Shown: positions 1,861 through 37,173 of the stretch, piece by piece | Layout: every line of letters starts with the position of its first letter | Position numbering within the stretch: position 1 is the first letter of the stretch | Origin: an uncultured beta proteobacterium | Lineage (GTDB): Bacteria; Pseudomonadota; Gammaproteobacteria; Burkholderiales; Burkholderiaceae_C | Assembly: GCA_963738615.1 (NCBI GenBank) | Contig: CAVTXI010000019.1 | Span: 154,771 to 218,770, forward strand | Direction: 5' to 3' | Length of the DNA stretch: 64,000 bases | The notes under the pieces: model-generated | What the model saw: the letters and a program-made list of their open reading frames with translations, nothing else | The model's database searches: none | What the model was told of the DNA's origin: nothing | Translations under genes and position numbers: made by a program

Positions 1861-2130
1861 TAGCCAATCGGCCGTGACCGGTTTCGAATGCGACTTCCGA
1901 GCCCAAGAACAAACCGACTGCGACGATCGTGCCGTATAGAACTGCGCGCCTCACAAGCGCCATAGGCCGCGCTCAGGCGCAAGGGCGACCGCGCACTGCG
2001 GGCAAGCACCGTGACGGCAACGCGTAAGCGCTGTGCATGCGTCGCAGAACCGTCATCGAATCTGCACGGTCTTGTCACATGCGCGGCCTAGCCTCGAAGG
2101 CTTGCATTCCCACCACGACCCAACCGACAC

Positions 2131-4368
2131 ATGAAGCACATCCCATCGCCCGGTAACACCACCTGGAATGACGAAGACTCCAACACCAGCGACAACGTTT
2201 CGTTCGACCACGTGCTGCGCGCACGGCTGCAGCGCCGCTCGATCCTTCGCTCGGGCGTCGCGGGCGCCGTGGCGGTCGCCGCGGGCGTGCTGCCGTTGGC
2301 CGCTTGCGGCGGTGACGACGACGATGACGTCGCAGCTACACCGACCGACACCGGCCCGATCGACAAGCTCGGCTTCGCAGGCGTCGCGAAGTCGCTGGCC
2401 GACACTGTGACCGTGCCGGCCGGCTACACCGCCAGCGTGGTCTACGCGCTGGGCGACCCGCTGACGGCCGCAACCGCCGCCTACAAGAACGACGGCACCG
2501 ACGACGCCTACGACCGCCGCGCGGGCGACCATCACGATGGCATGGAGTGGTTCGGCCTGGCCACCGATGGCACGCCGTCGGCCACGTCGAGCGAGCGCGG
2601 CGTGCTGGCGATCAACCACGAGGCGACCACCGACCAGACGCTGTCGTCGTTCTTCCTGCATGCCAACGGCGGCACGACCACGTTGCCGCGGCCGGCCGCC
2701 GAAGTCGACAAGGAGTTGATGATTCACGGCGTGTCGGTGGTCGAGATGCGCAAGACCAGCGCAACCTGGGCCAACGTACCGGGCTCGACCTTCAACCGCC
2801 GCATCACCGCGGTCACCGAGGTCGACATCACCGGCCCGGCGCGCGGCAACGGCCTGCTGAAAACGCTCTATTCTCCCGACGGCACCGTGACTCGCGGCAC
2901 GCTCAACAACTGCGGTACCGGCAAGACGCCGTGGGGGACGTTCCTGACCGGCGAGGAGAACTGGTTCGGCTACTTCACGCGCCCCGTCGGTGACGACGCC
3001 GCCCGCAGCAATGACAAGAGCGTGACCGCGCTGCGGCGCTACGGCCGCGCCGAAGGTGCCGCGTCGCGTCACGGTTGGGAAAGCGCCGGCAGCCAGGACA
3101 TCTACGCACGCTGGATCAACGCGCGCACCGGCACCAGCAGCGACGGCAGCGACGACTACCGCAACGAGCTCAACGGCATGGGCTACATCGTGGAGATCGA
3201 CCCCTACAACCCGCAAAGCCGCGCGAAGAAGCGCACCGCGTTGGGCCGCTTCGCACACGAGAGCGCCGTGTTCTCACTGCCCAAGGCGGGCGAGAAGCTC
3301 GCGGTCTACATGGGCGACGACTCGCGCGGTGAGTACATCTACAAGTTCGTGTCCGACACCGCGTGGAGCAGCGCCGACGCCAACGCCGCGGACCGCCTTG
3401 CCACCGGACAGAAGTACCTCGACACGGGCAAGCTGCACGTGGCGCGCTTCGACGCCGACGGCACCGGCCGCTGGCTCGAGCTGAGCGTGGCAACGATCCC
3501 CCCGGCCTACACCGCCTACACCTTCGCCGACGAAGCCGACGTTCGCGTGAACGCGCGCCTGGCCGCCGATGCACTCGGCGCCACGAAGATGGACCGCCCC
3601 GAGTGGTGCGGCGTGCACCCGACGACGGGCGAGATCTACTACACGCTGACCAACAACAGCAACCGTCGCGTGGCGCCCGGCAGCAGCGCGCAGATGCCGG
3701 TCGACAGCGCCAACCCGCGCGGCTACAGCGACACCCGCGGCACCTCCACGGACAACGTCACTCAGTCGGGCAACGTCAACGGCCACATCATCCGGATGAA
3801 GGAAAGCACCGGCAGCGCAGCCGCGACCGCCTTCACGTGGGACGTCTACCTTTTCGGCGCGCAGTCCGACGCCGACGCCAACCTCGTGAACCTGTCGGCG
3901 CTGACCGCGCAGCAAGACTTCTCGAGCCCCGACGGCTTGGCATTCAGCCAAAGCACCGGCATCTGCTGGATTCAGACCGACGACGGCGCCTACACCGACG
4001 CCACCAATTGCATGATGCTCGCGGCCATCCCCGGCACGGTGGGCGACGGCGCGAAGAAGACGCTGACGCACGGCGCGAGCGTCAGCGTCGACACCTACGT
4101 CGGCAAGGCGCCCACGACCGACACGCTGGCGCGCTTCCTCGTCGGCCCGAAGGGCAGCGAGATCACGGGGCTGGCCGAGACACCCGACGGCAAGACGATC
4201 TTCGTCAACATCCAGCACCCGGGCGAAGCGACCAGCATGGCCGACCTCACCGATCCGACGAAGTACCAGAGCCGTTGGCCGTCGAGCGCTGGCTATGGCG
4301 CGGGGCAACGGCCACGGTCGGCCACGATCGTGATCACGAAGGACGACGGTGGACGCATCGGGCGCTGA
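2131..4368 (+). CDS. phoX: Tat-secreted PhoX-family alkaline phosphatase (DUF839 beta-propeller)
   Basis: 745 aa; twin-arginine signal RRSILRSGVAGAVAVAAG; conserved PhoX blocks (GVLAINHE, YRNELNGMGYIVEIDPYNP, GKTIFVNIQHPGE). Confidence 0.85.
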   Translation: MKHIPSPGNTTWNDEDSNTSDNVSFDHVLRARLQRRSILRSGVAGAVAVAAGVLPLAACGGDDDDDVAATPTDTGPIDKLGFAGVAKSLADTVTVPAGYTASVVYALGDPLTAATAAYKNDGTDDAYDRRAGDHHDGMEWFGLATDGTPSATSSERGVLAINHEATTDQTLSSFFLHANGGTTTLPRPAAEVDKELMIHGVSVVEMRKTSATWANVPGSTFNRRITAVTEVDITGPARGNGLLKTLYSPDGTVTRGTLNNCGTGKTPWGTFLTGEENWFGYFTRPVGDDAARSNDKSVTALRRYGRAEGAASRHGWESAGSQDIYARWINARTGTSSDGSDDYRNELNGMGYIVEIDPYNPQSRAKKRTALGRFAHESAVFSLPKAGEKLAVYMGDDSRGEYIYKFVSDTAWSSADANAADRLATGQKYLDTGKLHVARFDADGTGRWLELSVATIPPAYTAYTFADEADVRVNARLAADALGATKMDRPEWCGVHPTTGEIYYTLTNNSNRRVAPGSSAQMPVDSANPRGYSDTRGTSTDNVTQSGNVNGHIIRMKESTGSAAATAFTWDVYLFGAQSDADANLVNLSALTAQQDFSSPDGLAFSQSTGICWIQTDDGAYTDATNCMMLAAIPGTVGDGAKKTLTHGASVSVDTYVGKAPTTDTLARFLVGPKGSEITGLAETPDGKTIFVNIQHPGEATSMADLTDPTKYQSRWPSSAGYGAGQRPRSATIVITKDDGGRIGR

Positions 4369-4409
4369 ACGCCCGCGGCTTCACGGCCCCTATAAGGCAC
4401 ACGGCAGCT

Positions 4410-5558
4410 TCAGGGGCGACTGAAGTCGCCCTGGAGCATGAGGTGCCAGCGCGCGTGCAGCTCGCGGTCGATCCACGGCAGCCGCTCGAGCGGCTGCGCA
4501 AACCAGCGCCCGAAGTCGGCGCGCATGCGCTGCGGCGATGCCTCACCGGTCAGACGCCGCAGGTCTTCGAGTGCCACCGCGGCCCAGGCATTGGCGATGG
4601 CGCGGTCGTGCGGCGCTTGGCGATGGGCGCTGCATGCTGCGAGGTAGGCGAAGCGATAGTCTTTCGACCAACCCCCGAGCGTGCCGCGCACACGCGACGC
4701 AAGCTTGTCCTGCCAAGCCTTGGGTGGCTCGCCGAGCAACGGCAGCGGTTGTGACTCGAGCGCGCAGAACGTGGCTGCGTCGCGCGGGTTCACGTGACGG
4801 TCGGCCTGCACGTGGATGAAGCCGCGCGTGTGGCCCCAGTAGTGGTGCACCACGTCCTTGCACGTCGCGAGCTTCGTGCGCTGGTCCAGCACCACGCCGA
4901 ACGCGAACTGCTCGACGTTGAAGACCGGTGCGCGGTCATACAGCGCGTCGAGCAGCGCCAGCGCCTGCTTGACCAGCGGCGCGTGCGATGGCAACACGCC
5001 GACGACGCCCGAGTTGAACATCGGCGTGGCGGCGGACATGTGAAAGCCTTCGATCTCGACGCCGTGGCGAATGAACTCGACAACGTCGGCGCAGTCGGGG
5101 TCGTCCGCGATCGCGGGCACTTCCTGCTCGTGCATCACCGTCGCATCAGGGCCGATGCGTTCGAACAGGCGCCGCGGCGACGCGGTGAAGAAGGTGTCGG
5201 TGTCGACCAACGCCACCGGCTCATCGCCCGCGTGCCGCATCGCGTCCAGCAGCGCCAGCACTTTCACGCGGTGGTTGTAGCTGCGGCCGGGTGTGCTCGT
5301 CCAAGCGCGCATGGTGTCGGGGTCGATCACGCGCACGTCGAACGGAAAGCTTTTGTCGAAGCGCGGCCGGTCGCTGATCAGTTCGATGCGGACTGCGTCG
5401 CTGCCATCGTCGCCTCGTTGGTCGCTCCGCAGATGGATGCGCGCCGACAGCGCACTGAGCAGGAATTCGAGCTCGTAGGTTTTGTTGTCGCCGTAGAGCA
5501 GATAGGTCAGGACTGCCATGCCGCTCAGCCGAAGTGCTTGTCGCTTGTCGCTGGCCAC
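4410..5558 (-). CDS. hypothetical protein, possibly nucleotide-diphospho-sugar transferase-like
   Basis: 382-aa intact ORF with coding-like composition; the VALVDTDTFF block loosely resembles a GT-A DxD region; no firm family assignment. Confidence 0.4.
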   Translation of the reverse strand: MASDKRQALRLSGMAVLTYLLYGDNKTYELEFLLSALSARIHLRSDQRGDDGSDAVRIELISDRPRFDKSFPFDVRVIDPDTMRAWTSTPGRSYNHRVKVLALLDAMRHAGDEPVALVDTDTFFTASPRRLFERIGPDATVMHEQEVPAIADDPDCADVVEFIRHGVEIEGFHMSAATPMFNSGVVGVLPSHAPLVKQALALLDALYDRAPVFNVEQFAFGVVLDQRTKLATCKDVVHHYWGHTRGFIHVQADRHVNPRDAATFCALESQPLPLLGEPPKAWQDKLASRVRGTLGGWSKDYRFAYLAACSAHRQAPHDRAIANAWAAVALEDLRRLTGEASPQRMRADFGRWFAQPLERLPWIDRELHARWHLMLQGDFSRP

Positions 5559-18783: not shown

Positions 18784-20077
18784 CTACTTCTGCGCCTGCT
18801 TCACCGCATCCGCCATGTCGGCGTTGATCTTCGCCAGCGCGTCGTCCACGCTGATCTCGCCGACGATCGCCTGCGTGACGCGTGCCACGGTGGGCAACAT
18901 GATCGCGCGGTTGAAGCGGTAGCCCTGGAACTGATAGGCCACCGGCGACAGCGCCTCGACGCCCTTGCCGAACGTCGACAACGCCGCCTTCGCCGCGGGC
19001 TGCGCAGTCTTGTAGTCGACGCCCTTCTTCGCCAGCCCCGCGTGCGCCGGGATGTTGTTGGTGCGTGCGGTGAACTCGGCCACGTTCGCTTCGCTCGCCA
19101 TGAACTCGAGGAACGCCGCGGTTTCTTGCGGCGACTTCGCTGGTCTTCAGCGCCACCCACGCCGCGCCGCCGGGAATGCCGGTGCACGCCGCCGGCCCGC
19201 AGGGGTTGGGCACCGCGACCCAGTCGAAGTTGTTGCCGACGTCCTTCTGCAGCCGGTTGATCTGCCACGAGCCCGACAGCACCATCACGACGCGGCCGTT
19301 GGTGAACTCGCCGATCGAGTCGGCGTAGGTGCAGCCGCCCGAGCCGGCCCACACCTCCTTCAACATCGTGCCGTCCTTGTGCCAGCCGACGAACTTGTTC
19401 ACCGCGGCCTTGTAGCCGTCGTCGAGCGCGAGGTTGCCGCTGCCGTCGAAGATCTTCGCGCCGTAGCTGATGGCCGGGCCGGCGAAGCGGTGGCCCGAAC
19501 GGTCCCACGCCATCGCGGCCTTCGTCTGCGTGGCCTGCGCGACCTTCTTCGTGGCGTCGGCCCACTGGTCCCACGTCGCCTTCGCGTCGGGCATCGGCAC
19601 CTTGGCCTGGTCGAAGAGCGTCTTGTTGACGTACGGGCCGGTCATCGTCAGCTGCGACATGAAGCCGTAGATGCCTTTGTCGGCCGCGCCGGGCCGCAGC
19701 CACGGCAGCGTGGCGCCGAAGTTGGTTTCGAAATACGCGGCGTCCTTCAGGTGCGGTCGCACGTCGAGGTAGTGCTTGGACAGGCCGCCCAGGTCGGTCA
19801 CGCGCGCGATGTCGGGGCCCTGGCCCGCGCCGAGTTGCACCGGCAACTGCTCGACGATGGTTTTGTAGGGCACGACGTCGAGCACGATCTTGATGTTCGG
19901 GTTCGCGGCTTCGAACTTCTTCGCGATCTCGGCGGTGACGTCGCACTCGACGCCGTCTTGGTAGCACATCACGCGGACTTCGCCTGCGACGGCGGGTGCG
20001 GATGACAGCGCGGCGAAGGCCAATGCAGCCAGTGCCGCGGGGGTGCGAAGAAACGAAACAGAAAGCGAAGCGGACAT
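18784..20077 (-). CDS. extracellular solute-binding protein of the sugar ABC transporter (apparent frameshift near 19140)
   Basis: Start MSASLSVSFL with signal peptide and a GAGGAA RBS; the body lies in the 821-aa artefactual ORF and the C terminus in the 18784..19101 frame (MASEANVAEF..AKINADMADAVKQAQK); a single G indel joins them. Confidence 0.75.
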
Positions 20078-23064: not shown

Positions 23065-23838
23065 TCAGCGCGGCGCGGCAAGGCCGGCGAGCAGTGGCGC
23101 GTAGCCCGGCGCCATGTCGATCGTGTTGTGCCCCGCGCCCGCGATCACGTGCACGAGCGTCTTGTCGCGAGGCAGCGCGGCCACGAGCGCGTCGCTGTGC
23201 CGGCGCGCAATCACCTCATCATGTTCCGCGATGACCACCGTCGTGGTCGCCTTGATCTTCGGCGCGTACGCGATCGAGTCGAACCGGTCCTCGAGCAGCC
23301 ACCGCACCGGCACCCACGCGAACTGAACAGCGGCCACCGACGCCAGGCTGTCGTACGGCGTGACGAGCACGAGCCGCGCGACCGGCCGCGACGCCGCGAG
23401 TTGCACCGCGACACCGCTGCCGAGGCTGCGGCCAATGACGGTGACGTTCGCGTGGTCGCGCAGCACGCGGTCGAAGAGCCGTCGCGCATCGTCGACGAGA
23501 GCCGCTTCCGACGCCTTGCCGCTGCTCGCGCCCCAGCCGCGGTAGTGCATCAGGTGCAGCGCGTGCGCGGGAAAGGCCTGTGCCAGCACCGGCAGGCTTC
23601 CTGCCACGTCCTCGGCGTTGCCGCCGAAGTAGAGAACCGCATCAGCGCCTGGCATCGGCCGCGTCGTCACCTGCACCGACGCGCCGTCGGCTTCGAGCAT
23701 GAAGAAGGGCGTCGACGGCGGTGCGCGGCGCGGCTGGGGGTGGTAGATCAGGGCGCGCTGGAAAACGTAGAGGGCCAGGCAGAGCAGCGCGTAGGCGAGC
23801 GCGAGGAACACGACGAAGGACATGACGCGGCGGGCCAT
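23065..23838 (-). CDS. alpha/beta hydrolase (membrane-anchored)
   Basis: Start MARRVMSFVV inside the longer ORF; N-terminal TM helix, GRSLGSG nucleophile elbow, acid and His residues. Confidence 0.7.
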   Translation of the reverse strand: MARRVMSFVVFLALAYALLCLALYVFQRALIYHPQPRRAPPSTPFFMLEADGASVQVTTRPMPGADAVLYFGGNAEDVAGSLPVLAQAFPAHALHLMHYRGWGASSGKASEAALVDDARRLFDRVLRDHANVTVIGRSLGSGVAVQLAASRPVARLVLVTPYDSLASVAAVQFAWVPVRWLLEDRFDSIAYAPKIKATTTVVIAEHDEVIARRHSDALVAALPRDKTLVHVIAGAGHNTIDMAPGYAPLLAGLAAPR

Positions 23839-23852
23839 CGCAACCCAAGCGC

Positions 23853-24552
23853 TCAGCGCTCGCGCAGCCGCTGCCAGAGCCGATCGAACTGATCCTGGAA
23901 CGCCGCCACCAGTCGCGGATCGTTGCTGACGACGAGGTTTTCTTCGTTGACCTCGCTTGCGCTGCGGGTCCAGTTGTAGCTGCCGTTGAGCAGCCGCGTC
24001 GCCGTCGATGATCGCGAACTTGTGGTGCATGTGGGCGCGGCTGCGATCGACGACGGTCGCGATGCCGGCGACGCGCAGGCGCGCGATGTCGCTGCCGGTG
24101 TCGTGCTCCTTCTCGTTGTCGGTCAGCAGACGCAGATTCACGCCGCGCGCGTGCGCCGCGAGGATCTCGGCGGTGATGCGGTCGTCGGAGATCGTGAACA
24201 CGCACAGGTCGACGCTGCGCCGCGCGCCGCGCAGGTGCGAGCAGATCGTCGACAGGCAGTCGTCGCCGGGGCTGAAGCAGGCGTTTTGACGAAGCTCGCC
24301 CGCAGGTGCGCGCACCGCATCAAGCGAACGGACCACGCCCTCGAGCCACTGCAGCAGATCGAGCTGACCGGCGTCGGTGGTCTTCGCACGCGCCATCGCG
24401 AAGGCACGGTTGCGCAGCTGCCTCAGGCCGTCTTCGGGCGGCGTGGCGTCGCGCACGGCGGCGACCAAGTCACGCTTCTCGTCGTCGGACAAGCGTGCGT
24501 CTTCGAGCGTGTGCGCAAGCTGCTCGAGCAGCGATGCGGGGTCGAACGTCAT
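23853..24552 (-). CDS. phospholipase D-like (HKD) domain protein, Nuc-like (one apparent frameshift)
   Basis: HKD motif HMHHKFAIIDGD; the C terminus (LLNGSYNWTRSASEVNEENLVVSNDPR..WQRLRER) lies in an adjacent frame after a one-base indel; start MTFDPAS follows the vapC stop directly. Confidence 0.65.
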
Positions 24553-24983
24553 CGCGATCCATCCGTCCAGGGATCGACGAGCGCCACGCCGCACCCACGA
24601 AAGTCAGCTGTGTTGCGAGTGGCGAGCGCGAGCCCGTGCAGCCGCGAGATCGCCGCGATCTGCGCGTCGAACTGGCCGATGGGCCGGCCCGCGCGGCGTC
24701 GTGCCGCGACGATCTCGACATACACATCGGCTGCGGCGCCATCGAACGGCAGCACGCGCCCGGCGAAGTCCTGCTCGAACATGGCGCCGATCGCGGCGTC
24801 GAGCGCGTCACGCCGCTTGCCGGTCGGCAAGAGGCGCGCGCCCAAGCGCATCTCGGCCTGCGTGATGCCGCTGACGTAGAGCGTACGAGGCGACTGCGAA
24901 CCGAACCACGCCGCGACCGACGGCTCACATCCCACGCGAATGACTTCGGAGAGAACGTTCGTGTCGACCAGCGTGGCCATCAC
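24549..24983 (-). CDS. vapC: PIN-domain toxin VapC
   Basis: 144 aa starting MMATLVDTNVL with conserved acidic residues; 4-nt overlap with the upstream antitoxin gene. Confidence 0.8.
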   Translation of the reverse strand: MMATLVDTNVLSEVIRVGCEPSVAAWFGSQSPRTLYVSGITQAEMRLGARLLPTGKRRDALDAAIGAMFEQDFAGRVLPFDGAAADVYVEIVAARRRAGRPIGQFDAQIAAISRLHGLALATRNTADFRGCGVALVDPWTDGSR

Positions 24984-25306
24984 CGGCGGCGCTTGGACGA
25001 TGTGACAGGCCCTTCGACGTTGCGCTCGGCAGGCTTGCGCTTTCGAGGCGACGCCGCGGATGCCGCGAAGACGGGGGGCGGGCGCACGGGCTCTCGCGCC
25101 TCGACCACCAGGTGCACGTCACCGAGCCCGGCGAAGCGTGCCCGGATCCTGGCGCCAAGATCCTCGACGGGCGTGGTGGGCGCTTCGAGCGCGGCGCGCA
25201 GGATCTGCCGCGCCTCTTCCTCCATCGATCGGTTGCGCGACGCCGCGCGGATGCGCAGGCGCGTCTTCAGCGGCTCGTCGAGGTTGCGGATCGTCAGCGT
25301 GGCCAT
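24980..25306 (-). CDS. vapB: FitA/VapB-like ribbon-helix-helix antitoxin
   Basis: MATLTIRNLDEPLKTRLRIRAASRNRSMEEEARQILR is a typical RHH antitoxin N terminus; overlaps vapC. Confidence 0.7.
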   Translation of the reverse strand: MATLTIRNLDEPLKTRLRIRAASRNRSMEEEARQILRAALEAPTTPVEDLGARIRARFAGLGDVHLVVEAREPVRPPPVFAASAASPRKRKPAERNVEGPVTSSKRRR

Positions 25307-25430: not shown

Positions 25431-28400
25431 CTACGTCCCCGCGGCATCCTTCTCGTCGGCGTCCGGCCTACCACGCGTATCGAGCGTCGAGTCGCGCAGG
25501 CCGCGCGCTTCGAGCAACCGATTCGCCTGCTCCAACTGCCTGCGGATCGAGTGATCGAGCTCGAGCCGACGTTCGGTCGCCGCAATCAGCGGCATCAGGA
25601 TCTTGCGGTAGGTGATGGCGATCTCGAGCAGCGCGTCGGCGATGCGTTCGCCTTCGCCGGTCGGCGGTGGCGGTGGTGGTGGTGGTGCGGCAGGCTCGTC
25701 CACCGGCTTCATCGCATCGAGCGCGCGCGCCACGTCGAGCACCGACGACGCGATGCGCATGCTGCCGTCGGTATCGTCACCGCCGAGCTTGTTGCGCCGG
25801 ACGAATTCGTCGCACAGCGACTGCCAGCGCGCCACCTCCTCGGCCGTCGCACTGCCCAGCAGTTGCGCGAGCGCGAGCAGGTTCTCTTCGGCGCCGCTCG
25901 TCAGCGTCTGCGCCTCGCCGCGGTAGTGGTCGCGCAGCAGCGCATCCAACTCGTCGTCGCGCATCTGCGGCGTGATCCGCGCCGCCAGCTTCGTCATGTT
26001 GCGATAGCTGCCCTGGAGCTTGAACGGCGGCTTCGTGCGGTACGCGTCCTGCTGCGCGGCCGACTCGATGTAGGCGAGGTTGACCTTCATCAGCACGTCG
26101 CGTGCTTTGAACAGCCGCTGAACCAGCGCGCGCAACTCGTCGAGCTCGGCCGCGCCGTACGGATGCGCGAACTCAGCTCCCGGCACGTCGTCGCCCTGCG
26201 CGAGGCTTACCAGGCGATGCACGTCGGCGGGTTCGCGCGAGGCCAGCGGCATCAGCACCGGGTTCGCGGTCAGCGCGTTCTCGAGGTACGACAGCGCGAA
26301 GAGAGCTTCGCGCCCCGCGAGCACGTCGCCCAGGTTGTAGACATCGGCACGGTTGGCGAGCATGTCGGGGATTTCGAACACGTCGCCCGACTCGGTGTAG
26401 GGGTTGCCGGCCATCACGATCGCGAAGCGTTTGCCGCGCAGGTCGTGTGTGTGTGGTTCACCGCGCCACACGCCTTCGATGCGGCGCGTGCCGTCGGCCA
26501 GCGCGATGAACTTCTGCAGGAACTCGGAGGACGTGTGCTGGATGTCGTCGACATACAGCATCACGTTGTTGCCCATCATCAGGCCGAGGTTGAGCTTCTC
26601 GAGCTCTTGCTTCGCGGCGCTTTGCGTTGCTGCCGCGGGGTCGATCGACACAACGTCGTGGCCGAGCGCGGGGCCGTTGATGCGCACGAAGGTCATGCCC
26701 AGTCGGTCGGCGACGTACTCCATCAACGTCGTCTTGCCATAACCCGGTGGCGAGATCAGCAGCAAGAGGCCCATGCGGTCGCTGCGCGAGCCTTCGCCTG
26801 CGGTGCCGAGTTGCTTGGCGAGGTTGTCGCCGACCAGCGGCAGGTACACCTCGTCGATCAGGCGGTTGCGCACGAAGCTCGACAACGGCTTGGCCTGGAA
26901 TTGCGCGAGGCGCAGGCGCGCTTTCTCGTCTTCGACGAGCGACAGGCGCAGCGCCTGCAGCGACTGGAACGCGGGCACGATCTGCGTGGTGTGGTGGCGT
27001 ACACGGCGCGCGAAATCGTTGAGGTTCAAGCGCAGGCGGCCGTCGACGATGCGCGAGTGTTCGCTGCGCAGGCCCGCGACGTTGACCTCGAGTTCGACGT
27101 TGTGGCGCTCGCGTTCGAGCTCGAGCGACAGCACGCTTGCGGCGTCGTCGACCCAAACACGGGCCTCGCGAGCATGAGCCTGCGTATAGGCGACGAGCCA
27201 AGAGCGCGCGAGTTGCCAGCGTTCGGCTGGCGCCGCAGCGACGAGATCGTGGCGCCACTCGCGCGATACGTCGCGCGCATTCAGCTCGCGTTCGAGCGCC
27301 GCCGCGAGGTCAGCGCCGGCAGCAGACACCACCCAGCGCACGCCGCCGCGCTCGGCCGCGAGTTGGCGCGGCAGATACGCCGCCGCACCCGCGCCGAGGC
27401 TCGCGTAGGCCGCCTCGTCGGTGGCGAGCGTCGGCGTGAAGTCACGGCCGAAGCGCAGCAGCGCGGCCGCGAGTTCGGCTTCGAGTTGGCGCCGTGCCGC
27501 GCTGTCGCCGAAAAGAGCCTGCATGCGCAGCGCCGCACGCGACTTGCGCAGCCACGCGTCGCGGGTCTCGACCAGCGTGCCGTGCTGCCAATACAGCAGC
27601 GCCAGCGCGCGTTCGCTCGGCCCGTGCGCGAGCAGGCCCGCGGCTTCGTGCATCCGAACAAGCGGCGCCGAGCAGCCGCGCCGCATCGTCGTCGTGCACG
27701 CCCTTCTGGTAGCCCTCGGCGTAACGCGGCGCGGCGAAGCGGCGTACGGCGTCGAGCATCGGCGCCAGGCCTTCGTCACCCGCCACCGCCCACGCGACGA
27801 GGTCACGCCACGGCCACTCGGTGCGGCCGTCACGCGTGTGCTCCATCACCTGCGCGGCGAGGTACTCGGCGCGGGCAAGCTCGGCGGTCTCGGACACCAG
27901 CGCCTGGTCCCACAACGCGCGGTGTGCCTCGAGGCGCGCATCGCGAACCGGCGCGAAGTAGTCGCTGCCGTTGACGTGGAAGTGCGGCTCGCCGTCCTTC
28001 ACGACCAGACTCAGATCGAGCGCCTGACGGTTGACGGTGAAGCGATGGCGCCCCAGCCGCAGGCTCGCACCGTCGTCGGCACTCAGCTCGCGCTGGTCGC
28101 GCACCGCGCGCAAGGCGTGGTCGCGCGCGGTTCTCGAGCGCGTATCGAGTTCGTCGGCAGCGACCGCGGCGCCAAGCTTGCGCAAGTCGTCGATCAGGCT
28201 GCGCAGCTTCGCGATCAGCGGGTCGGCGGCGAAGAAGCCGTGCACCTGCGCCGCATCGGCCAGCGCCGACACGCGCCGCGGCACGCCCTCGAGGATGCGC
28301 CCCGCCGCGTCGCCCACCGCTTGGGCGCGGCGCTGGCGCGCGGCGACCAGTGCCTGGCGGCGCGACGCCAGCGCTTCGTAGACAGCCTCGCGGCGCGCGG

Positions 28401-30710
28401 CGATGTCGCCCAGGAACTGATCGTGTTCGGCGAAGCGCCCTTCCAGTTCTTCGATCTGCGCGAGCAGCCGCGTCAACGCCTCGTCGCACTTCTCGGGCGT
28501 GTCGGCGAACTCGACCGCGTTCTCGACCGCCTGGCCGAAAAGCTTGAACTGCGCGCCGAATTCGGCCGCAGCTTCGGTTGCGCCGAGCGACTTGCGGCGC
28601 TGACGCGCATCGGCGCGCAGGCGGTTGATGTCGGCATACAGCGCAGACACGCGGTCGAGGATCGCGGTTCGCGCGACCGCATCGCCGCCGGGCAGGTTGC
28701 CGAGCTGTTCGGTCAGCAGGTCGAGCCCGCCCGCGTGTTCGTCGAGTGCGCTCAGGTGCGCGATCAACGCGGGCGAGGTCGACGCCTGCGGCAGTTGCGC
28801 CGCGATCGTGTCGACCGCGGTGCGCGGCCCGTCGAAGGCTTTCGCATCGGACAGGAACCCGAGCGCGCGGACACCGACGCGCTGCTGCTCGTCGGCCAGC
28901 TCGGTATCCATGCCGTCGATACGCGCAGCATCCGCATAACGCAGCTCGCGCAGCAGTTGCATCTGGCCGCGGCGCTCACGCAGACGGCCCAGCGCGTGCA
29001 TGAAGTCGTCGCGGCTCGCGCCAGATCGTGCTGGCGATGTCGGTCAGCAGCGCGCGCTGCTCGCCTTGCGCCTGGCGCAGCGCACGTTCGGTCTGCGTGC
29101 GGATGCTGTCGACCTTTTCGAACTCGGCCAGCGTGGCGCGCGCCGAATCGGCAATGCCGCGCAGCGCGGGCTGCACCCCACCGGCCTCGGGCTCGTCGAG
29201 CCAGCCGCGCGCGTCGACGATGCGCGTGCACTGGCGGATCAGGTCTTCGTACGCCGCGCGCGTGGGCACCTGTTCGGCGACTGCGCGGCCCACCGCCATC
29301 AACTCGGACACGCCACGCACCAGCTCGGCATTGCCGACGCGCGCGAAGAAGCCTTGGCCCACCGGTTGCGCGGCCGCGTGTTCGTCGCTGGCGAACGGTG
29401 TGCGCCACAACTGCATCGGGTGCACGCGCGTGGGCTCGTCGCGTTCGGCCTGCACAACAAGGACGCGGCCATCGTCGAAACGCGCGTAGCCGTTGGCGAC
29501 GATCGGCGCGGCGAGCGTCTTGTCGATCAGGTTGTAGGCGAACAGCGCGTAAATGCCGCCGTCGGGTTGGTAGAACACATACAGCACGTCTTCGCCGTTC
29601 GGCGAACGCAACACACGTTTGAACCGCAGGCTGCGGACCACGTCCGGCGGAAGGTCGAAGCGTTTGAACTCGCCCGATTGCAGGTAGCAGCCGCCGGGGA
29701 AGACGATGCCGTGATCCTCGGGCAATTGCACGCAGGCGTCGCCGATCGCGTCGATGCGTTCGACCTGCTGCGTGCGCCGGTTGTAGACGAGGTAGCGCGT
29801 CGCTTCTTCGCGGTACGGCCGCACGCGCAGCAGCACCAGTTGGCCGACCTGCGCGAAGCCGATGTCGGCGTCGGCGAGCGATTGGTTCTTGTCGTCGACC
29901 GGCTCGCTGTAGATGCCCAGGCCCGATTCGGTGTTGTTCTCGATCTTGACCGTGAGGTCGCCGCCGACGGTCTCGACGAACACGGTGTCGAGGATGTTGA
30001 CGTGCGGGTGGCGGCCGGCCACCTGGTGCTCGCGCGTCGCGATCGTCCACTCGAAGTCGTGGCTGGGCGGCAGCGCCATGTCGCGCTCGCCGCGGTTGTC
30101 GAGGTAGCGCGGAATGCCGTCGCGGCCGAGTTGCCAGCGGAAGACGCGAACGTCGTGCAGTTGCTGGCCGATACGGAACGCCGCAAGCAGCTTGTCGTGC
30201 GTGACGCGCAACTGCACCAGGCTCGCTTGCTTGTAGTAGGCGTGCAGCTCGCGGAAGTCGGACGCGAAACGCGCATCGTCGAGGAAGCTGCCGGGCAGCG
30301 GCACCGCCTCGAGCTCGCTGCCGGCGTGCTTCGGCGGCATCGGCGTTCAGGCGGTAGAGCGCGAAGACGTCGGCGATCGACGTCTCTTTTCGCAGGCCGA
30401 TGAAGACGTTGAAGCCGAAGAGCAGCAGCTCGCCGATGCGCACCAGGTCGCGCGCAACGCAGTTGTTCTCGGTGCGCGCGCGGGTGCGCAGCACGAGGGC
30501 CGAGTCGGAGCGGCCGAACTGCGCGATGCGCGCGTCGTTCAACGCACGCGCTTGCGCGAGCAGGGTTTCGCCTTGCGCGGCCAGGCGCTTCTTCAGCAAC
30601 TCGTAGCTGCCGCTGTCGGCGACCATGCGCTCGGTGGCCGAGGCTTCGGTCACCTGCGTGCCGGCCGCCGGTGAGTCGACGGCCCCTTCGAGCTGTGGAT
30701 CACGCGTCAC
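25431..30710 (-). CDS. very large (~1750 aa) AAA+ ATPase-domain protein downstream of flotillin (three or more apparent frameshifts)
   Basis: Contiguous minus-strand coding read through frames 28764..30710, 28976..30340, 27442..29001 and 25431..27833; the C-terminal half has Walker A ISPPGYGKTT and Walker B MLYVDDIQH plus a poly-Pro linker PAAPPPPPPPPTGEG. Confidence 0.6.
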
Positions 30711-30732
30711 GTCGCCGCTTCACTTCGCCACA

Positions 30733-32819
30733 TCACTTCGCTGCTTCGCCGAGCAGCGTCTTCAACGCCGCCTTCTGCGCCCCGCTGCCATCACGCGCGA
30801 TCTTCTGCACGAAGGCCGCGACCGACAGTTGCTGCATCTCGCCGGCCGAGCCGCCCAGCGCGCCAAGCAGATCCTTCAAGTCGCCGACCATGTCGCGTTC
30901 GCCGCTCAGGTGGTCCTTCAGCCCGACCTGCAGCGTGCGGCTGCGGTCGATCACACCGTCGATACCACGGCCGATCGACAGCGCTTTGACGAAGCGGTCG
31001 AAGTAGTCGCCCTCGCCGCCGACGATGTCGATCTTCGCGTTGGCCATCGCCTTGCCCAGCACCTCGGCCTGCTCGCGCGCGATGCCGGCCTGCGCGTCGA
31101 TGCCCTTCATCGTCTCGACGTGGTTGCGCTCGAGCGCCATGCGGTATTCCTCGTGCTGCCGCGTCTCGGCGCTCATCGACTTCATCGACTCGAACTTCTC
31201 GCGCAGGCCCTTCGCCTCGGCGCCGAACGCGCACTTCGATCTTGCGTGCTTCGGCTTCGCCCTGCTTGACCACGGCGTCGGCATCGGCCGCACGCACGTG
31301 CACGTCGGCCAGGCCGATCTTTTCCTTGCCTTCGGCTTCGGCCAGCATGCGCGCTTGCAGCACCTGCGCTTCGGCGGTGCCGACCTTGTGCTTGCCAACC
31401 GCTTCGGCTTCGCTGAGCGCCAGCTTCGCTTCGGCGCTGGCCTTCTGAACCTTCGCTTCGGCAAAACCAGGCGCGGCAGCGATCGCCTCGACACCTTCGG
31501 CTTCGCGCTTCTTCGCTTCGGCGTCGCGCTCGGCGACCTTGAGCTTGGCGTCGGCCAGCGTCACCTCTTCGGCCGCCTTGTGACGCGCGCGCTTTTCCGA
31601 TGCTTCGGCGGCCTTGACGTTCGATCACCATCTTTTCTTCGGCCTGCGCTTCGGCGTGGATCACCACGGCCTTGCGCGTGCGATCGGCTTCGGCCACCAC
31701 GCGCACTTCCTTGATCGCCTCTTCCTGTTCGGCGACCGTGCGCTCGACGACGATGCGCTCGCGGATCACGTCGGCGATCGCCTTCTTCTGCACCTCGACG
31801 GCCTTGTCCTTCTCGATGCGTTGCAGCGTCACCTCCTTCTCGCGGTCGACAATCTCGAGCTCGCGCGCCCGCGTCACCTTCTCTTCTTCGATCGCGACCG
31901 CGCGCTTGCGGTTGTTCTCGGCCACTTCCTTCTCGCGCAGCACGTTCTCCTGCTGCACCGTCACGAACTGCTCGGACTGCAGACGCGCGAGTTCGGCCTT
32001 GGTCTTCTCCTCGGCCTGGACCTTCTTGGTCTCGGCGTCTTCACGCGCGCGCACGGTCGCGATCTCGCGCCCCTGCTTCGCCTGCGCGTCGGCTGCCTGG
32101 CGCTCGAGCTCGAGCATCGTTTCCTGTGTCTCCACGTCCTTCTTCTTGATCTGCATCTCGCCGTTGCGGCGCAGCTCGTTGGTGCGCACGTGTTCGGTCG
32201 CGGTCAGCTCGGTGATCTTCCTGATGCCTTGCGCGTCGAGGATGTTGTTGGAGTCGAGCTTGCCGATCGGCGTCTGCTCGAGATAGTCGATCGCCGCGTC
32301 TTCGAGCACGTAGCCCGAAAGGTCGTCGCCGATCTGGCGAATGATTTCGTCGCGGAAACGATCACGCGCACCGTAGAGGTCGACGAAGTCCATCGACTTG
32401 CCCACCGTCTTCAGCGCTTCGGAGAACTTGGCCGAGAAGAGTTCTTCCAGCGTCTCCTGGCTCGACGCGCGTTCGCAGCCGATGCCCTGCGCCACCTTCA
32501 GCACGTCTTCGGCGGTTTTGTTGACGCGCACGAAGAACTTCACCTTGATGTCGGCGCGGATGTTGTCCTTGCAGATCAGGCCCTCGTTGCCCGAACGGTC
32601 GATCTCGACCGTCTTCAACGAGATGTCCATCAACTCGGCCTTGTGGATGATCGGGTAGACCATGCGGCCGGTGAAGGTCACCTCGGGCTCGGCGCGCAGC
32701 GTGTTGACGATCAGCGCGCGGCCCTGCTCGATCTTGCGATAGAACTTCGCGAACATCGCGAACAGGCCGAGGATCAGAAACGCCAGGATGCCGGCGGCGA
32801 CGAAGACGGTGGTGGTCAT
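30733..32819 (-). CDS. yqiK: flotillin-like SPFH/band-7 protein (YqiK-like; apparent frameshifts near 31200-31560)
   Basis: Start MTTTVFVAAGILAFLILG, an SPFH domain, a long E/A/K-rich coiled coil and a flotillin C terminus (GEGDYFDRFVKALS..LLGEAAK). Confidence 0.75.
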
Positions 32820-32883
32820 TGGGGGGGATCTCCTCCGGAAGGCGATGTGTCTCTTGGATATTGGGCACGCGCGCTGCGTCGCC

Positions 32884-33546
32884 TCAGCCTGGGTCGGTAT
32901 CGATGCGGTCGTCGATTCGGTAGCGCGCGGTGGCCGCGTCGTACTCGACGAGTCGCGCGCTCGAGCCGCGCGTGAAGGTGTTCGGCGTCGGCGCCCACAC
33001 GCGCACGTTGATCGCGGTGCCGCGCTGCTGCACTTCGGCGCGGCCGACCTTGTCATCGACGCTGCCGGTCACGACCTTGCACGCCAGGCCGACGAGCGAC
33101 GCGTTGGTCTTCGCGCCGTGGGTGACGAAGAGCGGGCGCAGCGGGCGCACCGCGCGCGCGGTGAGCACGATCGACAGTGCGACGGCGGCGAGCGCGATGC
33201 CGAGCCCGGCGGCGACTTGCAGCACGGTGGTCGGAATCATCGGCATCAGCCACGCACTCGCGATGCAGGCGAAGGTCCACGCGAAGAGCACGATCAGGCT
33301 CACGACGACCGAGAACGGCACGCCGTTCAGGCCCATTGCGACGACGTAACTCGCGAGCGTGCTGATCTCGCCGGCATCGCCGTCGACGTGCGTGTGGACG
33401 TCGGCATCGACATCGAAGTCGAGCCCGTGGTGCGTGAAGTCGACCAGGCCGATGATCGCAAGCGCCCAATAGAACAGCACGACGCCCAGCAGCGCCGTGA
33501 AGATGACCGTCGGGAAACCGAAGGCCGCAGCCAGAAATTCGCTCAT
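32884..33546 (-). CDS. yqiJ: NfeD-like membrane protein (YqiJ/DUF1449)
   Basis: 220 aa with several TM helices and a C-terminal OB-like segment, directly upstream of flotillin. Confidence 0.7.
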   Translation of the reverse strand: MSEFLAAAFGFPTVIFTALLGVVLFYWALAIIGLVDFTHHGLDFDVDADVHTHVDGDAGEISTLASYVVAMGLNGVPFSVVVSLIVLFAWTFACIASAWLMPMIPTTVLQVAAGLGIALAAVALSIVLTARAVRPLRPLFVTHGAKTNASLVGLACKVVTGSVDDKVGRAEVQQRGTAINVRVWAPTPNTFTRGSSARLVEYDAATARYRIDDRIDTDPG

Positions 33547-33651: not shown

Positions 33652-34035
33652 TCATCGGTTCCCCCACGCTCGCTTCGCTCGCTGCCCCCGAGGGGGCTGG
33701 TCCGCCTTGGGAGCGGCCCGGCGGCGGACCGACCGGCGTGTCGCAGCCGCCGCAGCGGGCGCGGCGCGTGCGGCCTTCGCCTGCGGCGCTGCCGCCTTCG
33801 CGGCCTGCTTGTTCGCGAAGCGGATCAGCTCGTCGGTGACGCGCTCTTTGATGCCGAGGCGATCTTCAGCCGGCATGCGGTAGCGTTGGCCGAGCACGTC
33901 GTAGTCCTGCGCGGACAGCGTCACCGTCAAGCGGGGCCGCTTCGCCTTGTGAACCGTCGGCAGGCCCAGCAGCAGGCGGATCTGGTCTGACGTTGACACA
34001 TCGTTGAGGAAGGCCGCGGCGCGCACGGCTTCCAT
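33652..34035 (-). CDS. hypothetical small protein (start uncertain)
   Basis: Open frame between the pspA-like and yqiJ genes; Ala-rich C terminus; weak support. Confidence 0.25.
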   Translation of the reverse strand: MEAVRAAAFLNDVSTSDQIRLLLGLPTVHKAKRPRLTVTLSAQDYDVLGQRYRMPAEDRLGIKERVTDELIRFANKQAAKAAAPQAKAARAAPAAAAATRRSVRRRAAPKADQPPRGQRAKRAWGNR

Positions 34036-34126
34036 CACCGCGGCTTCGACGTCGAACGCGACCTGCACCGCACGCAGCGCTTCGTCGGACCCGGTCCAGC
34101 GTGCCGGCTTCGTTCGCAACACGGTT

Positions 34127-34888
34127 TCAGGACCCGGTCTTGCCCGCCGATGCCTCGTCGCCGCCAGTGGGTGCCTCGCCCTTCGCGGCAGATGCGGCAG
34201 ATGCGGCACGCGCGCGAATGCGGTCGAGCACCTGGCGCTTGCGGTCGGCGTCGGGGCCGATGCCGGCGTCGTGCAGCTTGCGCTCGAGCGCTGCCGAGCC
34301 AACTTCTTGTTCCAGTTCTTCGGCCGCGGCCATGCGGTCGGCCAGATCGATGTGGCGCTGGCGGATGCGCTCGAGCGATTCCTTGGCGCTGGTCAGCTTC
34401 GACGTGCCGCCGACCAGGTTGTCGGAGATCGACTGCGTGGCGCGGTAGACGCTTTCGGTGGTCTGCGCCATGGCCAGTTCGCGCTCGTGTTCGCGGATGC
34501 GTGCTTCGGCCGCCTTGATCAGGTCCTTCAGCCGCTGCACTTGAACCGAATAGCTCGCGTGCGCCTTGGCCTGCTCGTCGAGCTGGGCTTCGACTTCGGC
34601 GACCTTCGCCGCGACCTCTTCGGCCAGGCTTTCCTTCGACTTGTCGAGCGCCTCGATCGCCAGCGCCTCGTAGCGCGCGGCTTCGCCCTTCAGGCGTTCG
34701 ATCTCGCGTGCGCTTTGCATCTGCTTGGCCATCACGGCGGTCAGTTCGCCGCGCGCCTGTTCGATGTGGTGCTTCGCGTCGAGGATCTCCTGCTCGTAGA
34801 TGCGCGCGCTGTTGGCGTCGACGACGCTGTCGCCGATCTCGCGCACGCTGCCGCGCAGCAGGGTCACCAGCTTCTTGATCACGGACAT
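34127..34888 (-). CDS. PspA/IM30 family protein (YjfJ-like)
   Basis: 253-aa coiled-coil protein with the PspA-family signature N terminus (MSVIKKLVTLLRGSVREIGDSVVDANSARIYEQEILDAKHHIEQAR). Confidence 0.85.
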   Translation of the reverse strand: MSVIKKLVTLLRGSVREIGDSVVDANSARIYEQEILDAKHHIEQARGELTAVMAKQMQSAREIERLKGEAARYEALAIEALDKSKESLAEEVAAKVAEVEAQLDEQAKAHASYSVQVQRLKDLIKAAEARIREHERELAMAQTTESVYRATQSISDNLVGGTSKLTSAKESLERIRQRHIDLADRMAAAEELEQEVGSAALERKLHDAGIGPDADRKRQVLDRIRARAASAASAAKGEAPTGGDEASAGKTGS

Positions 34889-34922: not shown

Positions 34923-35339
34923 TCAGACGAGGAATTCGGCCATCGCCTCGAGCGCGTCGATCGCGTTGTCGCTCAGCACGGCGATGTCCTGCGCGACATC
35001 GGCCGCCGACGCGTCGCGACGCAACGCGCCGTAGAGCACGTAGCGGTCACCGACGCGGCCGAAGGACGACAGCGGCACCGCGGGGTTGAGGTCGAGCAGC
35101 GTGGACTGAAGCTCGGCGCGGCGCGCGGGCTGCACTTCGGCCTCTTTCCAGAGGTGGCACAAGCACAGGATCTGCATGTCGGAGCCGGTCACGAAGATCG
35201 GCAGTTCTTCACGGCCCTCGATGCTGAGCTGCACCACCGGCACGCGCCCGGGGATCGGCTGCAACTGCACCTGAAGGCCGCCCATCGCCTGGCCGACCAG
35301 CGCGTCGAGGCCGTTCAACTGCTCGAGCAAAGGCTTCAT
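34923..35339 (-). CDS. YjfI-like DUF2170 protein
   Basis: 138 aa immediately upstream of the PspA-like gene, as in the yjfI-yjfJ arrangement. Confidence 0.6.
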   Translation of the reverse strand: MKPLLEQLNGLDALVGQAMGGLQVQLQPIPGRVPVVQLSIEGREELPIFVTGSDMQILCLCHLWKEAEVQPARRAELQSTLLDLNPAVPLSSFGRVGDRYVLYGALRRDASAADVAQDIAVLSDNAIDALEAMAEFLV

Positions 35340-35502
35340 GCGTCACCCTCCTTGGCAGCCGCCGTGCGCCCGAGAGTGGGTCGCCGGCATCGACATATCA
35401 TGTCGATATCGGCATGTTATGTCCGACGGACATTTCATGTCAAGCGGTGTCGAGCGGTCGCAGCAGCATTCGTCCCGCAAGCGGGCGAGGGAGCTGACCG
35501 CT

Positions 35503-36839: not shown

Positions 36840-37173
36840 ATGACCGAACGACCCGACCTGTTCGCCGCCGTCGTGCCGCAGCTCGGCGCGCTCGACGCGG
36901 TACGCGATGATGCTCTGCATCACGCGCGGCGCTGACGAGCGGCACGCCGAGCGTGACCGGGTTGACGACGGCGGGATGCACGATGCGCACCAGCTCGCGC
37001 TTGGACTGCTTCAGCAGCAGCAGTCGGGCCGATCTTGATGCCGCCGCCGGTCGAACCCGCGCAGGTCGCGAAGCGCCCAGCAGGATGATCAGCAGCGACG
37101 CGAACATCGGCCAGCGGCCGTAGTCGTAGGTCGTGTAGCCGACGCGGCCGGCGCCGAGGATGACGATGTTCAT
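36840..37173 (-). pseudogene. trkH/ktrB-like potassium transporter gene fragment
   Basis: About 110 codons encoding a pore-loop region (..CAGSTGGGIKI.. then RLLLLKQSKRELVRIVHP after a frame change); TerC ends at 37194, so no room for the remaining ~350 aa. Confidence 0.55.

Follow-up and report, generated by a model that had tools for sequence, protein, structure and literature searches.

The 64-kb stretch of DNA analysed here (the window), part of a contig from an uncultured beta proteobacterium of the order Burkholderiales, carries on its minus strand a co-directional gene array that encodes a PspA homolog, a flotillin and a giant ATPase. Behind a promoter and operator region (35392-35443), the array starts at 35339 with the gene for a protein of 138 amino acids (aa) of the DUF2170/YjfI/BacA type (34923-35339; Pfam PF09938, E 1.1e-27), which is adjacent to and co-directional with the gene for a 253-aa PspA/IM30 family protein of the YjfJ/BacB type (34127-34888; Pfam PF04012, 113.8 bits against a cut-off of 33.9). 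DUF2170 proteins are described as having a CesT/Tir-like chaperone fold (PMC11237479, PMC10948618); the protein encoded here is a short form without an N-terminal extension. The array continues with a 156-aa open reading frame (ORF; 33652-34122) whose product, p156, is predicted from an alignment, weak ribbon-helix-helix (RHH) Pfam matches and its co-occurrence with an operator to be the operon repressor, and with the gene for a 220-aa YqiJ-like short NfeD protein, which has three predicted transmembrane (TM) segments and a C-terminal soluble domain (32884-33546; TM prediction and hhalign). It ends with the genes for a YqiK-type flotillin (30733-32819; BLASTP to YqiK, TM prediction and indel map) and a giant cytoplasmic ATPase of the BacE/PA3728 type (25431-30710; indel map and ortholog), which comprise 694 and 1758 aa, respectively, after frame correction. 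The order and positions of these genes, from YjfI down to the giant gene, are those given by the original prediction, which was made from the letters of the sequence. The G+C content of the region is 66-72%.

In the window, the coding region of the giant ATPase is scattered over three reading frames. A protein search with its C-terminal fragment retrieved an identical 636-aa product (P0001) on a public 2.05-Mb contig, and the 90% cluster of this product contains, in addition to fragments of 519 aa (P0121) and 454 aa (P0122), an uninterrupted protein of 1755 aa (P0123). The latter is encoded on a 43.5-kb contig of assembly GCA_965188475.1, which we used as the reference locus (L001). Over most of the span from 14591 to 40657, the window is 97-98% identical to L001 at the DNA level, and in L001 all genes are intact, in the order DUF1015, DUF2170, PspA (271 aa), 156-aa, 220-aa, 694-aa and 1755-aa gene, followed 3' by genes for a FitA-like protein, a PIN protein, a PLDc_2 protein and an alpha/beta hydrolase. 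Base-by-base comparison of the two loci located exactly three frame breaks in the giant gene, at ~30324-30334, 29009 and 27667. Those at 29009 and 27667 are single-base insertions in the window; at 30324-30334 the two sequences differ by 7 nt, which is best explained by one surplus base in addition to an in-frame indel of 6 nt within a variable loop. A single ORF of 1758 aa results when a base is taken out at each of the three sites; it is identical to P0123 in 1731 of 1755 residues (98.6%), so that the large ORF does not resolve into several unrelated genes. The flotillin gene contains two further single-base insertions, at 31620 and 31231; their removal restores a protein of 694 aa with 687 residues identical to the L001 ortholog. 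The original estimate of three or more breaks was thus right for the giant gene and overlooked the two in the flotillin gene.

It is conceivable that these breaks are real and that, in this strain, recent inactivation has turned the locus into a cluster of pseudogenes. Five frame-disrupting insertions within two adjacent genes would fit such a scenario, as would the fact that the deposited genome itself encodes the 636-, 519- and 454-aa fragments. However, single-base insertions of the same kind also break unrelated neighbours, namely the PLD gene at 24000 and a solute-binding-protein gene at 19141, and every frame-disrupting indel in the operon and the PLD gene is an insertion on the window side. 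Neither stop-codon substitutions nor deletions have accumulated, and every gene is intact in the sister genome at 98% DNA identity. The substitutions between the two loci bear the mark of strong purifying selection: in the giant gene they are distributed 10/8/53 over the three codon positions (49 synonymous, 22 non-synonymous), in the flotillin gene 8/1/34 (36 synonymous, 7 non-synonymous), and the DUF2170 gene shows one synonymous substitution. We therefore consider inactivation very improbable. As the breaks are exclusively insertions, affect unrelated neighbouring genes as well and occur in genes under purifying selection, they are, to judge from the sequence comparison, most likely consensus errors of the assembly rather than signs of gene decay. 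Judging from the comparison, an indel error may occur every 2-3 kb or so across the genome.

The two contigs differ at several further places. Outside the operon, small indels are found at 37023-37074, 36930-36944, 38069 and 39492, and an ORF that spans 23065-24594 in the window joins the PLD and alpha/beta hydrolase genes artificially. Between 20235 and 21038, in a gene called GCE_fung (PF22244) in L001, identity drops to 83% with many indels, against 97-98% in the flanks; either the gene is hypervariable or the stretch reflects a patch of recombination, both being possibilities only.

For the flotillin and the 220-aa protein, a search of Pfam, including its Band_7/Flot and NfeD models, produced no match up to an E-value of 10, NCBIfam gave just a weak FloT match for the flotillin (E 0.0015), and searches against sequences in the Protein Data Bank (PDB) with either protein returned nothing useful. 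Since these resources were of little help, we took the identity of both proteins from comparison with their E. coli relatives. In BLASTP, the alignment of the 694-aa protein with YqiK extends over 450 aa at 30% identity (E 1e-38); it takes in the N-terminal TM segment and the SPFH region and reaches into the coiled coil. The protein has the layout of a flotillin, with an N-terminal TM segment, an SPFH region, a long coiled coil rich in E, A and K, and a C-terminal domain. A profile built from 64 sequences of the 220-aa protein matches E. coli YqiJ in hhalign over residues 60-209 (91.7% probability, E 7.8e-7), and this profile match to YqiJ (DUF1449) extends over both the TM and the C-terminal regions. 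By hydropathy, the flotillin has one TM segment, the 220-aa protein three and the giant protein none. The comparisons bear out the original assignment as a YqiJ-YqiK pair, and the gap in Pfam annotation probably conceals many more flotillin/NfeD pairs of this kind.

The giant protein is composed, from N- to C-terminus, of a helix, a beta-propeller, a long helical region, an AAA+ module, a poly-proline linker and a terminal helix. Its N-terminal ~900 residues, in which the original prediction had seen no motif, contain two Pfam families of unknown function, DUF3686 (29210-30560, minus; PF12458, E 1.9e-166) and, in the long helical middle region, DUF7902 (28588-28842, minus; PF25472, E 5.3e-23). 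In the intact ortholog P0123, DUF3686 covers residues 51-498 (E 3.8e-192) and DUF7902 residues 621-705, followed by matches to AAA, AAA_22 and AAA_5 from residue ~1310 onwards. We obtained an AlphaFold model for the N-terminal 629 residues of a homolog with 72% identity (P0124), with a predicted local distance difference test score (pLDDT) of 88 and a predicted template-modelling score (pTM) of 0.79. It consists of a long helix (residues 11-53), an all-beta domain of ~28 strands (59-421) and subsequent helical bundles. When this model was compared with the PDB using Foldseek, almost only beta-propellers were returned, with E-values of 1e-6 to 2e-4 and low TM-scores, among them the WD40 domains of Elp1 and DCAF1, CyRPA, paraoxonase, neuraminidases and prolyl oligopeptidase. 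The model thus indicates that DUF3686 is a divergent, predicted beta-propeller, in agreement with the beta-propeller named for this protein in the passages by Ravi et al. that describe the operon class (PMC11237479).

The predicted structure of the C-terminal 636 residues is of moderate quality (pLDDT 73). It contains the AAA+ module (25782-26774, minus; MoxR/AAA_5-like), with Walker A (ISPPGYGKTT, 26727-26756) and Walker B (MLYVDDIQH, 26535-26561), both as named in the original prediction, together with a predicted sensor-1 segment (VMAGNPYTE, 26391-26417) and a predicted arginine finger in LANRAD, within MLANRADVYNL (26331-26363), all on the minus strand. The Walker A sequence GPPGYGKTT, the sensor-1 Asn in MAGNP and the Arg in LANRAD are invariant among 18 aligned homologs. 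Sequence matches to solved AAA+ structures are confined to the Walker A region, and the Pfam AAA_5 model, with a cut-off of 22 bits, scores 22.6 with the window fragment and 21.0 with full-length P0123. At the structural level, the best matches of the module are of the MoxR type rather than classical clade-3 AAA proteins; MoxR is the closest fold among the AAA+ clades, and the beta-hairpin preceding sensor 1 is present, which bears out the MoxR-like flavour originally ascribed to the ATPase core. The poly-proline tract PAAPPPPPPPPTG (25656-25694, minus), likewise part of the original description, precedes the C-terminal long helix. It is not conserved in the homolog alignment, has low pLDDT in the model and differs from L001 by one substitution and an in-frame indel of 3 nt (PPPPPPPP against PPRPPPP); it is a lineage-specific linker of variable length, not a functional motif.

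Proteins with DUF3686 fall into 528 clusters at 50% identity among 1.84 billion representatives; those of full length comprise ~1600-1900 aa and carry the domain around residues 110-550. The Pfam title of DUF3686 reads 'ATPase involved in DNA repair'. We obtained no support for a role of the giant protein in DNA repair: scans with Pfam and NCBIfam detected no DNA-binding, nuclease or SMC-type domain, a search for DUF3686 in the literature collection used here found no paper, and the 'DNA repair ATPase' designation appears to be an inherited label. Two papers returned by a literature search on flotillin together with MoxR were, by their titles and abstracts, judged unrelated.

The neighbourhood, which the original prediction did not recognise, corresponds in its gene set and order to the 'biofilm-associated cluster' bacABCDEF of P. 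aeruginosa (PA3732-PA3727; PA14_16140-16200). Its products are a DUF2170 protein (BacA), a PspA homolog (BacB), a 23-kDa TM short NfeD (BacC), a 76-kDa flotillin (BacD/PaFlo3), a giant ATPase (BacE) and a PLD-like protein (BacF). We are highly confident that the operon of the window is a Burkholderiales member of this class. It is not a new kind of system, as the class has already been described and, in part, studied. By comparative genomics, Ravi et al. 2024 (mSystems, PMC11237479) have described an operon class that comprises a CesT/Tir (DUF2170)-PspA dyad, a band-7/flotillin protein, an AAA+ protein with coiled coil and beta-propeller, and a three-TM YqiJ/YuaF protein; PLD joins it in some Proteobacteria, and abbreviated operons of flotillin and YqiJ, with or without the ATPase, are reported to be widespread. 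We found all components listed in the passages on this class in the window and verified them independently; the 156-aa regulator, the operators and the MoxR-like nature of the AAA+ module are not mentioned in those passages.

In P. aeruginosa, the bac cluster was detected by reverse transcription PCR as a single six-gene transcript, the crystal structure of BacA resembles type III secretion chaperones, and a bacA mutant over-accumulates BacB to BacF 6- to 13-fold (PMC10948618). Biofilm formation, swarming, rhamnolipid production and virulence are impaired in bacB (PA3731) mutants, and osmotic shock induces BacB (PMC2587700). PA14_16180 has been characterised as the SPFH protein PaFlo3, with PA14_16160 as a short NfeD in the same cluster (PMC13086221). 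PA14_16190, annotated as 'ATPase involved in DNA repair', ranks with the genes on which RsmA has the strongest effect (PMC8855297), and PA3728-PA3732 are upregulated upon phage infection (PMC12041424).

Pseudomonas loci encoding the same ATPase have, in this order, genes for a 206-210-aa BacA, a 233-aa PspA, a 213-aa TM protein, a ~690-aa flotillin and the ~1715-1750-aa ATPase, and in two of the three loci listed a 229-aa PLD protein follows 3' of the ATPase. The proteins of the window operon share 27-57% identity with those of the Pseudomonas loci. In two of the latter, the first gene's product exceeds the cut-off of 300 bits of the NCBIfam BacA equivalog model (NF050185), with 344 and 328 bits, whereas the DUF2170 protein of L001 reaches 43.5 bits (E 2.3e-11) and matches the C-terminal half of the model only. 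It falls below the cut-off because it lacks the N-terminal extension; by this sequence criterion, the window protein belongs to the same operon class without being a BacA equivalog. The window thus differs from bac in combining a short BacA, devoid of the ~70-aa extension, with a separate 156-aa RHH-like protein. A further difference is a toxin-antitoxin pair, consisting of a FitA-like RHH antitoxin (24980-25306, minus) and a PIN toxin (24549-24980, minus), that, in this lineage, separates the PLD gene from that of the giant ATPase. The PLD gene itself (23853-24552, minus; PF13091 on the L001 ortholog) encodes a BacF-type PLD/HKD-family hydrolase with the HxKx4D motif HHKFAIID. For the PLD/HKD protein of one Pseudomonas locus (L043, 11798-12487), the best NCBIfam matches were NucT, DISARM DrmC and DpdK, all of them below cut-off and none a phospholipase. 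Compared to E. coli, the DUF2170 and PspA families are those of yjfI-yjfJ, and YqiK and YqiJ are related to the window proteins. From their b-numbers (b3050/b3051 and b4181/b4182), we take the two E. coli pairs to lie at separate loci, and yqiK of E. coli K-12 is not followed by an ATPase gene, whereas the window unites both pairs and the giant ATPase in one array.

To assess how tightly these genes are linked, we collected 80 loci, with one genome per species and 10-kb flanks, and searched them by tblastn with the L001 proteins. The loci are mostly from Beta- and Gammaproteobacteria, with additional ones from Myxococcota, a zetaproteobacterial metagenome-assembled genome (MAG), one actinomycete and one Sphingobacterium MAG. 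A flotillin gene lies directly upstream of the ATPase in 74/80 loci, and a YqiJ-like gene upstream of the flotillin in 69/80; where either is missing, the contig is in most cases truncated. PspA was found in 45/80 loci, DUF2170 in 43/80, the 156-aa gene in 26/80 and the PLD gene in 22/80, in most of these directly downstream of the ATPase. Coupling of the ATPase to the flotillin/NfeD pair is thus close to obligate, while the PspA dyad is a frequent, dispensable companion. The original prediction named, as one thing that would refute it, an ATPase from a well-characterised family that is routinely linked to flotillins; the linkage is indeed routine, but the family is not well characterised.

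These frequencies bear on the question of what the ATPase acts upon. PspA belongs to the ESCRT-III superfamily, and the giant protein might serve as a Vps4-like motor for the disassembly of the PspA polymer, with flotillin and NfeD as a mere membrane platform. However, PspA was found beside the ATPase in fewer loci than the flotillin (45/80 against 74/80); the MoxR-type rather than clade-3 structural matches of the AAA+ module also speak against a Vps4-like protein, and Pfam scans recognised no MIT-like domain. We regard this possibility as unlikely. By the linkage statistics, the flotillin/NfeD pair is a better candidate than PspA for the direct partner of the ATPase.

Another alternative is a membrane-anchored system directed against the nucleic acids of phages or plasmids, in which ATPase and PLD protein would act as NTPase and nuclease, similar to McrBC or DISARM DrmC. 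Here, too, the composition of the loci is unfavourable: the PLD gene accompanies the ATPase in about a quarter of them, and the invariable partners are membrane proteins. Moreover, Pfam detected neither a DNA-binding nor a nuclease domain in the ATPase, the name 'DNA repair ATPase' is nothing but the title of DUF3686, and the PADLOC models gave no meaningful match for any of the six proteins. This reading is therefore improbable, even more so than a motor acting on PspA. A known defence system was likewise considered and rejected, the PADLOC output amounting to coiled-coil noise for PspA and Walker-A-only matches for the ATPase.

The 156-aa protein of the window has a basic low-complexity tail and a core of ~110 aa, which characterises its family; the 524 clusters of this family are all labelled 'hypothetical' and carry no Pfam domain. 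The family alignment reveals two strand-helix-helix repeats (VQVAFDV… and RPRLTVSLS…). Single members match RHH_1, RHH_10, RHH_9 and FitA-like models in Pfam weakly, with E-values of 7.6e-4 to 0.05, and a search of PDB sequences with the p156 profile yielded only a spurious match to a designed repeat protein. Upstream of the DUF2170 gene, a promoter scan identified a sigma70-like promoter on the minus strand, with TTGACA as -35 box (35438-35443), TAACAT as -10 box (35414-35419), an 18-nt spacer and 10/12 matches. One GACAT-N3-ATGTC palindrome overlaps the -35 box (35429-35441, minus), a second lies just downstream of the -10 box (35392-35404, minus), and a third palindrome, ATGTCCGtCGGACAT, is located between them. 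The two GACAT-N3-ATGTC copies are the only ones in the entire 64-kb window, and TTGACATnnnATGTC is invariant in 17 aligned orthologous promoters. For P. aeruginosa, in contrast to the sigma70-type appearance of the window promoter, a sigma54 site has been proposed (PMC10948618). A strict sigma54 -24/-12 pattern was found upstream of DUF2170 in none of the 39 upstream regions examined; in the window, a loose GG-N10-GC can be seen by eye near 35457-35470, which is nothing unusual at 68% GC.

Across the 80 loci (1.55 Mb), GACAT-N3-ATGTC occurs 38 times, in 38/38 cases in the promoter region of a DUF2170 operon. It is present in 24/26 loci that encode p156 and in 0/54 loci that do not (loci concerned: L002-L024, L027, L050, L055). 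Of the two p156 loci without the palindrome, one is truncated upstream, and the other has its p156 homolog downstream of the ATPase. In Marinobacter and a Cellvibrionaceae MAG (L028, L033, L037, L053, L069; ~2100-4500), a DUF2170-PspA-p156 unit is divergent from an NfeD-flotillin-ATPase unit, and the GACAT-N3-ATGTC palindromes lie in the shared intergenic region, which makes co-regulation of the two units probable.

The loci fall into two regulatory types. In the first (24 loci), the 156-aa gene occurs together with a short BacA and the operator GACAT-N3-ATGTC. In the second (18 loci), which includes the Pseudomonas-type operons, the 156-aa gene is absent, BacA has an N-terminal extension with the signature R-[EDA]-Q-G-[LF]-[VI]-K-K, and the operator is TYACATGTRA. 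The latter sequence occurs in 31 copies, all upstream of operons with a long BacA and usually as two copies 22-25 bp apart (L026, L031, L043, L045, L046, L049, L054, L058, L059, L063, L064, L066, L075, L078, L081). The extension comprises ~70 aa, and in three of four proteins tested it matches a MazE-like antitoxin family weakly (E 0.0027-0.07). This pattern suggests that BacA itself may be a DNA-binding autorepressor in Pseudomonas-type operons. The simplest reading of the covariation would be that p156 and the BacA extension are two interchangeable solutions to autorepression, which would also account for the derepressed operon of the bacA mutant in P. aeruginosa. Relative to the known class, p156 as a conserved, unannotated family and the covariation of operators are new here.

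Considering the evidence as a whole, the explanation that we favour, with some reservation, is a stress operon of the bac class in which the ATPase remodels a flotillin/NfeD scaffold. In unstressed cells, the RHH-like p156 would occlude the operator positions at -35 and +1 and thereby repress the operon, which would become expressed upon envelope stress. Flotillin and NfeD would then oligomerise into a scaffold or cage that is anchored in the membrane and lies on its cytoplasmic face, by analogy with solved SPFH cages (cited in PMC13086221). The giant ATPase would oligomerise via its MoxR-like AAA+ ring, dock via the propeller and the coiled-coil arm, and power, by means of ATP, the assembly, disassembly or turnover of the scaffold or of clients held in it. 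PspA, restrained by its DUF2170 chaperone, would be released and polymerise on the damaged membrane, and the PLD-family enzyme might modify lipid or, conceivably, nucleic acid. Of this scheme, the specific mechanism assigned to the ATPase, ATP-driven remodelling of the flotillin/NfeD scaffold, is tentative and based on gene linkage and analogy. More speculative still is the notion that the DUF3686-AAA+ giant is a dedicated motor of flotillin/NfeD cages, as Vps4 is for ESCRT-III, gated by a repressor family that comes in two forms: a free tandem RHH-like protein acting on GACAT-N3-ATGTC, or an extension fused to BacA acting on TYACATGTRA. The likeness to HflK/C-FtsH and ESCRT-III/Vps4, where an SPFH scaffold or an ESCRT-III-like polymer is genetically coupled to an AAA+ motor, is one of function only: the ATPase of the window has neither a protease domain nor a TM segment, belongs to a different AAA+ clade, and its homology to FtsH and Vps4 is limited to the generic AAA+ fold.

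Several points weigh against this picture. The Walker B motif of the giant protein reads LY(L/V)DD, with the DD invariant in the 18 homologs. As the usual Walker B ends in DE, ATP hydrolysis may, judging from this motif, be slow or unconventional. Furthermore, MoxR relatives are normally paired with a VWA partner, and no VWA match was obtained among the operon proteins or the flanking called genes. Beyond these two features, the giant protein differs from the MoxR chaperones (NorQ/NorD, CbbQ/CbbO, RavA/ViaA) and from midasin in having one C-terminal AAA+ module within 1750 aa and in carrying a propeller and a long helical arm. The proposed contact of the ATPase with flotillin, NfeD and PspA is deduced from gene linkage and analogy, and the assignment of p156 to the RHH fold derives from weak single-sequence Pfam matches, the best at E 7.6e-4. 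In P. aeruginosa, deletion of paFlo3 reduced biofilm formation by ~20% and caused no strong stress phenotype (PMC13086221). Finally, the frame breaks are probable rather than proven sequencing errors, and the public record itself encodes the broken fragments. The original suggestion of a membrane-remodelling or envelope-defence machine is a plausible candidate reading.

Bacterial flotillins and PspA homologs are widespread, and their mechanisms are poorly understood; in the operon class represented in the window, both are linked with a conserved AAA+ protein of very large size. The P. aeruginosa version of this class affects biofilm formation, swarming, rhamnolipid production and virulence; it also reacts to osmotic shock and to infection by phages. 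Our analysis provides three handles on this system: the near-obligate partner of the ATPase is the flotillin/NfeD pair rather than PspA, the motor resembles MoxR and has an unusual Walker B with DD, and a sharply defined operator together with a candidate repressor would make clean induction experiments feasible. The most useful new points among these are the covariation of regulator and operator and the flotillin-centred linkage of the ATPase.

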